Positions 3,137 through 4,594 of a DNA stretch of 64,000 nucleotides are shown piece after piece. The position numbers were made by a program, and so were the translations under genes. The stretch is from Escherichia coli (GTDB lineage Bacteria; Pseudomonadota; Gammaproteobacteria; Enterobacterales; Enterobacteriaceae): the NCBI RefSeq assembly GCF_044324875.1, contig NZ_CP172185.1; one strand, written 5' to 3'. Position 1 is the first letter of the stretch; each line of letters begins with the position of its first letter. The notes under the pieces were generated by a model. It was not told the origin of the DNA, made no database searches, and saw only the letters and a program-made list of their open reading frames with translations.

Positions 3137-4594
3137 CTATTTTTTAGCATTCGCATCCAGCGGAGCGGCATAACAACTGTAAGAAAAACATTCGCTGGAA
3201 TGATTGGCGATATCTTTAAAATTGCTTTCAGCAACCCCCTCGAACATGAGTACCGTTCTGGACAACTCTCCGTTGTCATTTATATGTGGAAAATCAAATT
3301 GTGTACTGAATCGCCATACATCTGTCTTTTCTGGCTCGCTGTTCACAGAGATACGTCGATGGAAGACTCCTCCTGAAAACGTGCGCCAGAACAATTGTTG
3401 ATCAAAATCTTGTAATATCGCAGACTTGGATGCTATTTGACGTAGTAAACCTGCATACCGTGGACTGCCATTACGAGCAACATTATGCAAACCCTGACTA
3501 AAAGCATCAAACAAACAATAGATGTGATCACTAGTGAAAAAAGGTCTTAATTTTTTTTGTTCTTCATCGCTGTAATCCAGGAGCATCTCATTGATTTCTT
3601 CCGGTGAGAATTTTAAGACAAAATTATCCTCAGGATTTGTTTCTTTCTTGTTTTTTTCACTATTTTTCTCCTCAATGGTCTTCGCATTTTGTTTCGCAAT
3701 TTTTTCCGCATTTTCTTCCTCAGTTTTTTTCGCAATTTTTTCCGCAATTTTTTCCCGAGTTTTTGATTTTAGACTAACACCATCGATGTCAACCGGTGTT
3801 GTTTTCAGATCTCTCTGCGCGTCTTTCAAATTTGTCTTATAGAGATCGGGCACTTTATCGGCAGATAAGTATCCGAATGAAGAAATCTGGTGTGTACGCA
3901 TGGGGGGCTGTTCACAAAGCATCGAGGCTATATCGTCTTTAAACTCTTTTACATTAAAGTTATCGGCATTAACCTTCCCTGTTATAAACCCCGCATCGGC
4001 AATTTTCTTCTCTAATTGTTTTGTACGTTTAGAATAATAAGCGTTGTTATCATAAAACTTTTCAAGAAGGGCCCACTCCTCAAGCTGCCTTATGTGATTT
4101 TTCAACTGTTGATGATCTATTTTATATTCATGTGTACTAGAATCATTTTGGTTGCAAGAGTTACAGATTTTTAAGCATAATTTCCCATCAGATTTATCAT
4201 CTATGGTATCAGTGAAAATATAGGACAATTCAATACTCTGCCCGTTCTTATCAGTCATCTCATATGACCATTGCCCCGTTCGTTTCGCATTCTTAATGAG
4301 TTCGATGGACTCTACAGGACAACCATGAAGAATGGGCAGAATTTTATCAGGATGCTTAATGAGTAAAATTATTATATTTACAATATTTGAAAAGAAATCT
4401 TTGCTATTTTTTATTTCATCGATTTTTTCCGCTGAAATGTTTACTAAGTTTTCATTTCCGGAAATGAAAAGCAATTTGCCATGGGGGCTTTTTTTAAATT
4501 GTTCTTCTGTTTTAGAAAAAACATCCTCTTTAAAAGGTGGCAACTCAGTACCAGTAATAAACGGTTTTAATAAATTCGAATTTGAAATTGTCAT
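3137..4594 (-). CDS. hypothetical 485-aa protein of unknown family; low-GC, probably horizontally acquired; Lys/Glu-rich repeat linker between N- and C-terminal regions
   Basis: Single long ORF with ATG at 4592-4594 preceded by GGAG; DNA about one-third G+C by eye against roughly half in flanks; no Walker A, HNH or other motif I can recognise. Confidence 0.7.
   Translation of the reverse strand: MTISNSNLLKPFITGTELPPFKEDVFSKTEEQFKKSPHGKLLFISGNENLVNISAEKIDEIKNSKDFFSNIVNIIILLIKHPDKILPILHGCPVESIELIKNAKRTGQWSYEMTDKNGQSIELSYIFTDTIDDKSDGKLCLKICNSCNQNDSSTHEYKIDHQQLKNHIRQLEEWALLEKFYDNNAYYSKRTKQLEKKIADAGFITGKVNADNFNVKEFKDDIASMLCEQPPMRTHQISSFGYLSADKVPDLYKTNLKDAQRDLKTTPVDIDGVSLKSKTREKIAEKIAKKTEEENAEKIAKQNAKTIEEKNSEKNKKETNPEDNFVLKFSPEEINEMLLDYSDEEQKKLRPFFTSDHIYCLFDAFSQGLHNVARNGSPRYAGLLRQIASKSAILQDFDQQLFWRTFSGGVFHRRISVNSEPEKTDVWRFSTQFDFPHINDNGELSRTVLMFEGVAESNFKDIANHSSECFSYSCYAAPLDANAKK

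Follow-up and report, generated by a model that had tools for sequence, protein, structure and literature searches.

The stretch analysed here, 64,000 nucleotides (nt) of an Escherichia coli chromosome (contig NZ_CP172185.1; hereafter the window), begins with the genes tgt, queA and acpH (open reading frames, ORFs, at 64-1191, 1246-2316 and 2478-3116) and continues, past an insertion, with malZ, proY and brnQ (4783-6599, 6755-8131 and 8204-9523), as identified from the ORF list and the annotation of matching genomes. The insertion between acpH and malZ is a strain-variable islet with a G+C content of 31-43%, compared with about 50-57% in the flanks, and it carries a single ORF of interest, hereafter the host ORF, which is annotated as "hypothetical protein" in E. 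coli O157:H7 Sakai and other genomes. K-12 is without the islet, and there the acpH and malZ stop codons are only 4 nt apart. Among 5,426 complete E. coli genomes the host ORF is found in 1,127 (about 21%), and every copy is chromosomal and sits in the same acpH-malZ context. Inside it lies a tandem array of short repeats, which we read, with a probability of roughly 75%, as an in-frame coding variable-number tandem repeat (VNTR), or coding minisatellite, that encodes a probably helical spacer of changing length, given that the array stands above chance, its unit is a multiple of three, its copy number is polymorphic in whole units and the changes recur.

The array was located with Tandem Repeats Finder (TRF) and a direct pattern search; a general repeat search did not list this short-period array. 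The TRF calls have a period of 12 at 3683-3755 (6.1 copies, 80% matches) and at 3651-3753 (8.5 copies), and a period of 36 over the full array (3.2 copies, score 121), with scores of 85-121 across the array. The only other TRF call in the 64 kb, at 15554-15583, has a 15-nt unit resembling CAGCAACAGGACGTTA, 1.9 copies and a score of 53. An exact 19-nt word, TTTCGCAATTTTTTCCGCA, is present exactly twice in the window, where none would be expected by chance, and six 12-mers stand in register from 3683, 3695, 3707, 3719, 3731 and 3743 (up to 3754), three of them exact copies of CGCAATTTTTTC. The fraction of matching positions is 0.80 at lags of 12 and 24 and 0.86 at a lag of 36. None of 20,000 shuffles gets to 0.80 at any lag (maximum 0.69), and the 73-nt windows of the array score highest in the whole stretch. 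A first-pass annotation, made from the letters alone, had pointed to near-identical short direct repeats at about 3700-3750 in a novel ORF; the strings it quoted are present and far above chance, but its limits were too narrow, as the array extends in codon terms from about 3635 to 3769.

Read in the coding frame, the units comprise four codons each (KSKT, REKI, AEKI, AKKT, EEEN, AEKI, AKQN, AKTI, EEKN, SEKN, KKET), with at most two to three adjacent units identical, and the array starts 825 nt inside the host ORF. Residues 278-318 translate to KTREKIAEKIAKKTEEENAEKIAKQNAKTIEEKNSEKNKKE, exactly the Lys/Glu/Ala-rich sequence that the same annotation had given. The frame itself is unusually open, with 1 in-frame stop, where shuffles would give 36 and the five other frames contain 18-58, and conservation of the ORF suggests that it is translated. 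The features of the locus are collected in Table 1.

Table 1. Positions of the repeat array, its host ORF and the surrounding features in the window
Feature	Position	Strand	Remarks
Tandem array (TRF, period 12 and 36)	3650..3764	.	Best-conserved core 3683-3755
Exact 19-nt repeat TTTCGCAATTTTTTCCGCA, copy 1	3692..3710	+	Exact pattern search
Exact 19-nt repeat TTTCGCAATTTTTTCCGCA, copy 2	3728..3746	+	36 nt from copy 1
Lys/Glu/Ala-rich repeat segment KSKTREKIAEKIAKKTEEENAEKIAKQNAKTIEEKNSEKNKKETN	3635..3769	-	Codons 276-320; about 10 degenerate 4-codon units
Host ORF	3137..4594	-	485 amino acids; hypothetical protein; orthologue of ECs_0454 of E. coli O157:H7 Sakai; from ORF list and annotation
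Low-GC strain-variable insertion (islet) carrying the host ORF	3117..4782	.	1.67 kb, between the stop codons of acpH (3116) and malZ (4783)
GGAG Shine-Dalgarno-like motif	4602..4605	-	7 nt upstream of the host-ORF ATG at 4594; read from sequence
Strong nested hairpin	4701..4749	-	Spacer between malZ and host ORF, inside inserted DNA; 11-bp outer and 5-bp inner stem

Length variation among strains was evaluated on the 120 best database proteins, of 466-493 amino acids (aa), 115 of which carry both of the anchors DIDGVSL and IEEKN. Between the anchors these 115 proteins have 15, 19, 23, 27, 31, 35 or 39 aa, while the remainder of the protein is 454 aa long in 113 of them. The seven resulting allele lengths (469, 473, 477, 481, 485, 489 and 493 aa) hence differ in 4-aa steps that fall in the repeat segment only, and the alignment of the best 120 proteins contains just two small C-terminal deletions as length differences elsewhere. 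At the DNA level, the gaps inside the array are exact multiples of 12 nt. The expectation that slipped-strand events would alter the length of the segment in frame is borne out by this comparison of isolates, with a unit of 12 nt (36 nt at the higher order) in the coding frame and insertions and deletions of whole units.

Complete genomes give the same picture. In a sample of 60, evenly spaced among the 1,127 carriers, the ORF measures 1,446 nt in 28, 1,458 nt in 17, 1,470 nt in 11 and 1,386 nt in one; two of the remaining genomes have an ORF length that is not a multiple of three and one has a truncated ORF. All 16 sampled rows with the O157:H7-type allele are 1,446 nt long. Rare length classes are found on 1-4 contigs each, compared with tens to hundreds for the main classes. 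The same length can also occur on different sequence backgrounds, with 1,446 nt shared by the FUJ and Sakai types and 1,470 nt by the M7424 and O145 types.

Several of the rare alleles differ from a common one by a single unit and by nothing else outside the array. The proteins P0050, P0056 and P0062 carry three different one-unit deletions relative to P0073, a further one-unit change separates P0055 from P0083, and P0107 and P0115 carry one-unit insertions, in each case with no difference outside the array. On the 489-aa background alone this amounts to at least five distinct one-unit changes (three deletions and two insertions). In DNA these changes are seen as exact events, a duplication of ACTGCGGAAAAA and a deletion of 12 nt, at sites where the neighbouring units differ by 1 nt. 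Larger steps occur as well, and the 466- and 469-aa alleles correspond to the window allele minus 48 nt (16 aa), lost between EKIA-coding units near 3728-3746. Because unit changes are seen on otherwise identical proteins, the events must recur, and because lineages such as O157:H7 are uniform in length, the array is not a fast switch. The pattern is not one of hypermutation but of sporadic whole-unit slippage that recurs over evolutionary time, and a small number of length classes predominate and stay constant within lineages. The proneness to slippage proposed in the first-pass annotation is thereby supported as regards recurrence, but the variation is slow and the length classes follow sequence lineages.

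A second kind of allele has no array at all. In 31 of the 5,426 complete genomes (E. coli GF66.1, L008 1501-2886, and 30 others) the host ORF is replaced by an intact mosaic allele of 461 aa, which is 79% identical overall to the protein of the window and has diverged strongly in its middle third (residues about 262-420). The linker of this allele, ELKTRRHLADIIHVKCMREKNYTTDQGFELPEE, is non-repetitive and 24 residues shorter, and the allele retains the anchors KTR..(I/L)A..I and EKN. The refuting condition named in the first-pass annotation is thus partly borne out in this minority of genomes, where the segment is short and non-repetitive, while the main allele family still varies in copy number. 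Since the mosaic allele is intact without the array, the ORF does not need the repeat to stay open. The mosaic allele implies recombination with a more distant one, for which no source was found. Retention of the anchors suggests that the main family gained its array by expansion of a short helical segment; the alternative direction is contraction followed by divergence.

About ten degenerate 12-nt units, arranged as three 36-nt higher-order units, encode the Lys/Glu/Ala-rich segment, and replication slippage or unequal recombination between near-identical neighbouring units would add or remove whole units. Each event changes the spacer by 4 residues; in a helix this would mean about 6 Å of length and a rotation of about 40 degrees. 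With a unit divisible by three no event disturbs the reading frame, so the repeat alters the length of the spacer and cannot switch the gene on and off. Slippage as the mechanism and the protein's tolerance of spacer length are inferred. Two considerations weigh against a spacer whose length is set by slippage and matters to the protein. The length series could derive from rare recombination between alleles rather than from slippage, and the ratio of nonsynonymous to synonymous substitution rates (dN/dS) of about 1.1 in the repeat part (few sites), together with the repeat-less allele, means that spacer length may have no functional consequence.

The composition of the segment is unusual. Residues 276-320 are 53% charged (Lys 29%, Glu 22%) and 11% Ala, with no Pro or Gly, and only 9% are strongly hydrophobic, compared with 33% hydrophobic residues in the flanking parts, which are of ordinary composition. 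The hydrophobic moment peaks at a period of 4.0 residues (0.34) and drops to 0.04-0.05 at 3.6-3.43. With hydrophobic periodicity almost nil at 3.4-3.6, neither a heptad coiled coil nor a simple amphipathic helix is likely. In the full-length AlphaFold model, built on a shallow alignment, the mean predicted local distance difference test score (pLDDT) is 36.6, and a helix at 277-304 is the best-scored part (pLDDT 51-61). When residues 255-353 are modelled in isolation, AlphaFold predicts one helix at 277-315, with a pLDDT of 73-81 over about 275-304 and of 55-63 beyond; 316-330 are non-helical and helices begin again from 331. The segment (about 277-315) is most likely a single solvent-exposed, charged helical and partly flexible spacer, as judged from these models. 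The earlier idea of a linker between two domains fits in so far as the segment lies between two non-repetitive parts and is predicted to be helical, with the N-terminal part (1-275) and the C-terminal part (about 321-485) as putative domains, but the coiled coil that was also envisaged does not fit a periodicity of 4.0 that is near zero at 3.5-3.6.

Against a helical spacer stand four observations. Opposite-charge pairs at i/i+3-4 number 15 compared with 11.7 +/- 2.7 in shuffles, a count of at least 15 being reached by 14% of the shuffles. Asn and Thr, which are poor helix formers, make up 20% of the segment. The part beyond residue 305 may be disordered, given the drop in pLDDT there. Finally, the structural reading relies on AlphaFold models made with no useful alignment, and at the confidence of the full-length model the domain boundaries are not fixed.

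Relatives of the host protein were looked for with several methods. A HMMER search against 1.84e9 representative proteins returned one full-length cluster, from E. coli, and fragments of the same gene, and word-index homologue searches found E. coli and Shigella alleles and fragments only. With the peptides KTEEQFK and EKIDEIK, no relative was found in one genome per species across 100,044 species. Phages and true plasmids hold no copy; the only two "plasmid" records that carry the gene are 4.9-Mb chromosomes. The NCBIfam scan of the host protein gave no match, a sequence search of the PDB gave nothing under E = 1.7, and a literature search on the locus tags, protein accessions, malZ with acpH and TolA repeats gave nothing usable. 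The sole remote HMMER match joins residues 102-158 (4121-4291) to three consecutive PKD repeats of P0151, a 947-aa PKD/peptidoglycan-binding protein (E = 1.7e-4, 23-29% identity), and the low-confidence AlphaFold model places four beta-strands in this part. The Pfam PKD models match neither the full protein nor residues 102-158, even at E <= 10, so the PKD-like stretch is a lead only, unsupported by Pfam. Other hits were rejected as compositional noise: the Pfam matches to DUF3700, QRICH1 and Cas_CT1975, far under the cut-offs and on the low-complexity residues 259-373; a PADLOC match to Cas7e on the repeat region (E = 0.012); and one PHROGs family of unknown function (E = 0.006).

Selection on the host ORF was estimated from six alleles. 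The whole ORF has a dN/dS of 0.68, compared with 0.01 for queA, 0.04 for acpH and 0.06 for malZ; by region the value is 0.61 N-terminally, 1.13 in the repeat (few sites) and 0.67 C-terminally. On the evidence as a whole, the host gene is a real but weakly constrained or diversifying ORFan restricted to Escherichia and Shigella. The dN of the host ORF (0.036) is well above that of its neighbours, and its dS (0.05) is below their 0.09-0.13. Its spread among lineages may thus be more recent than the divergence of the core genes on either side of the islet.

The edges of the islet coincide with the acpH and malZ stop codons (window 3111-3120 and 4780-4790; K-12 site L002 5330-5345). The last codons of acpH read CTC TGA at the occupied site and TTA TAA at the empty K-12 site, and those of malZ read ATC AAC TAA and ATG AAC TAA, respectively. 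The islet boundaries showed neither flanking direct repeats nor mobility genes. The hairpin just downstream of malZ has a folding energy of -30.5 kcal/mol (z = -6.2), and an equally good fold was obtained in 0 of 200 shuffles; it is probably a malZ terminator or a repetitive extragenic palindromic (REP)-like element. An Rfam scan of 3000-4900, hairpin included, gave no match. The window malZ (minus strand) has a 1-nt deletion in a G-run at 5574-5575, which splits it into two overlapping ORFs (5424-6599 and 4783-5616), and a comparison malZ is otherwise nearly identical to it (1 mismatch in 1,818 nt). The deletion is either a real pseudogene mutation or a homopolymer sequencing error. In E. coli O55:H7 USDA5905 (L007 2501-2836), a deletion fuses the last 334 nt of the host ORF to a truncated malZ, and both the remnant and the truncated malZ are annotated as pseudogenes.

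One explanation for the length series would be that it reflects assembly or sequencing artefacts. Repeats may be given the wrong size in short-read assemblies, and many rare classes were seen once only, but a read is longer than the array (about 115 nt), every difference is an exact multiple of 12 nt, and the three main lengths are found repeatedly, in hundreds of finished genomes produced by many laboratories. Even a rare form such as the 473-aa allele P0099 sits on a 4.64-Mb contig, and we give an artefact next to no weight. We attach equally little to the idea that the array is a phase-variation (contingency) tract for high-frequency on/off switching or expression tuning. In its favour, the host gene was acquired horizontally and evolves fast, and the tandem repeat in it shows recurrent unit changes. 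However, a 12-nt unit slips in frame and all common alleles keep the frame, the array holds no long perfect tract (at most two to three neighbouring units are alike), it is placed deep in the ORF (825 nt from its start) and not in the promoter, and lengths are uniform within lineages such as O157:H7, with rare classes confined to 1-4 contigs each. A coiled-coil oligomerisation module, in which copy number would set the length of a dimeric or trimeric stalk, draws some support from the long predicted helix, the regular Ile/Ala pattern (IA..IA) and the Asn at repeat position 4, a residue that coiled-coil cores may contain. We nevertheless consider it improbable, given the concentration of the hydrophobic moment at 4.0 (0.34 compared with 0.04-0.05 at 3.6-3.43) and the scarcity of strongly hydrophobic residues (9%), and as each 4-residue change would shift the heptad register.

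A more serious alternative, which we hold to be quite possible if somewhat short of even odds, is that the horizontally acquired ORF is weakly constrained and possibly decaying, and that the repeat is a neutral low-complexity expansion with no role, its length being tolerated noise. It is in line with the elevated dN/dS of the ORF relative to queA, acpH and malZ (0.68 compared with 0.01-0.06) and the value of 1.13 in its repeat part, with the absence of the gene from about 79% of complete E. coli genomes, with the 31 genomes that keep an intact ORF around a linker 24 aa shorter and free of repeats, with the loss of most of the gene in O55:H7 USDA5905, and with the 2 of 60 sampled genomes in which the length is not a multiple of three; homologues, known domains and literature were all searched for and none was found. 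Yet the 1.46-kb frame is open in nearly all 1,127 carriers, despite allele divergence of up to about 10% aa and an expectation of 36 stops, the parts on both sides of the repeat have a dN/dS under 1 (0.61 and 0.67), and a good Shine-Dalgarno motif lies upstream of the ORF. This alternative bears on function only: it is compatible with slippage and differs from a slippage-variable spacer just in denying the spacer a role. At the other extreme, the host ORF could be a functional, fast-evolving Escherichia-specific accessory protein engaged in an antagonistic interaction with a phage, a competitor or the host and encoded in a variable one-gene islet amid core genes, and the repeat helix an evolvable molecular ruler, with different spacer lengths, or the repeat-less mosaic linker, selected per lineage. 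The dN/dS of 0.68, the mosaic allele, the recurrent length changes and the lack of a homologue among about 15 billion sequences leave room for this proposal, which we regard as unlikely.

The in-frame coding VNTR described here has counterparts among known repeat systems. Bacterial intragenic VNTRs, used as markers in multiple-locus VNTR analysis (MLVA), arise by slipped-strand mispairing. Like them, the array consists of head-to-tail units that are multiples of three, varies in copy number between constant flanks and shows independent whole-unit changes; unlike them, it has three common lengths, degenerate units (70-80% matches) and low variability. Simple-sequence contingency loci underlie phase variation in Haemophilus, Neisseria and Campylobacter. 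The host gene shares with these loci a slippage-changing tandem repeat in an accessory gene, but its unit is a multiple of three, it has no long perfect tract and the array is outside the promoter, so no frame switching results.

At the protein level, two further systems invite comparison. Domain II of E. coli TolA is reportedly a long helical spacer, rich in Ala, Lys, Glu and Asp and composed of short degenerate repeats. The segment described here would likewise be a repeat-built, extended Lys/Glu/Ala-rich connector, predicted to be helical, between two parts of an enterobacterial protein. The two are without sequence homology, as HMMER found no TolA match among the 1.84e9 representatives or in the PDB, and the host-gene segment is about 40 residues long compared with about 200, lacks a membrane anchor and carries Ile, Asn or Thr as every fourth residue. 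The ER/K single alpha-helix (SAH) linkers, for example of myosin VI and X and of caldesmon, are said to be charged helices of this general kind. The host-gene segment is similarly charged and free of Pro and Gly, is predicted to form an isolated helix between putative domains, and would resemble them in that length sets the distance between those domains. However, its 53% of charged residues is well under what is typical of ER/K helices, its i/i+4 pairs are not significantly enriched, and Asn and Thr account for 20% of it. As far as the models go, the segment would work on the same principle as an ER/K single helix or the connector of TolA, and it has the defining properties of neither.

Taken alone, the repeat is a routine coding VNTR and a new example of a well-known kind of feature, usable as a low-resolution typing marker. 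It also provides a natural linker-length series, from 15 to 39 residues plus a repeat-less form, for study of the host protein. The main residual interest is the host gene itself, a 485-aa ORFan carried by about one fifth of E. coli, O157:H7 (ECs_0454) included. If the host protein has a role, the repeat would be a ready-made test of the effect of spacer length.

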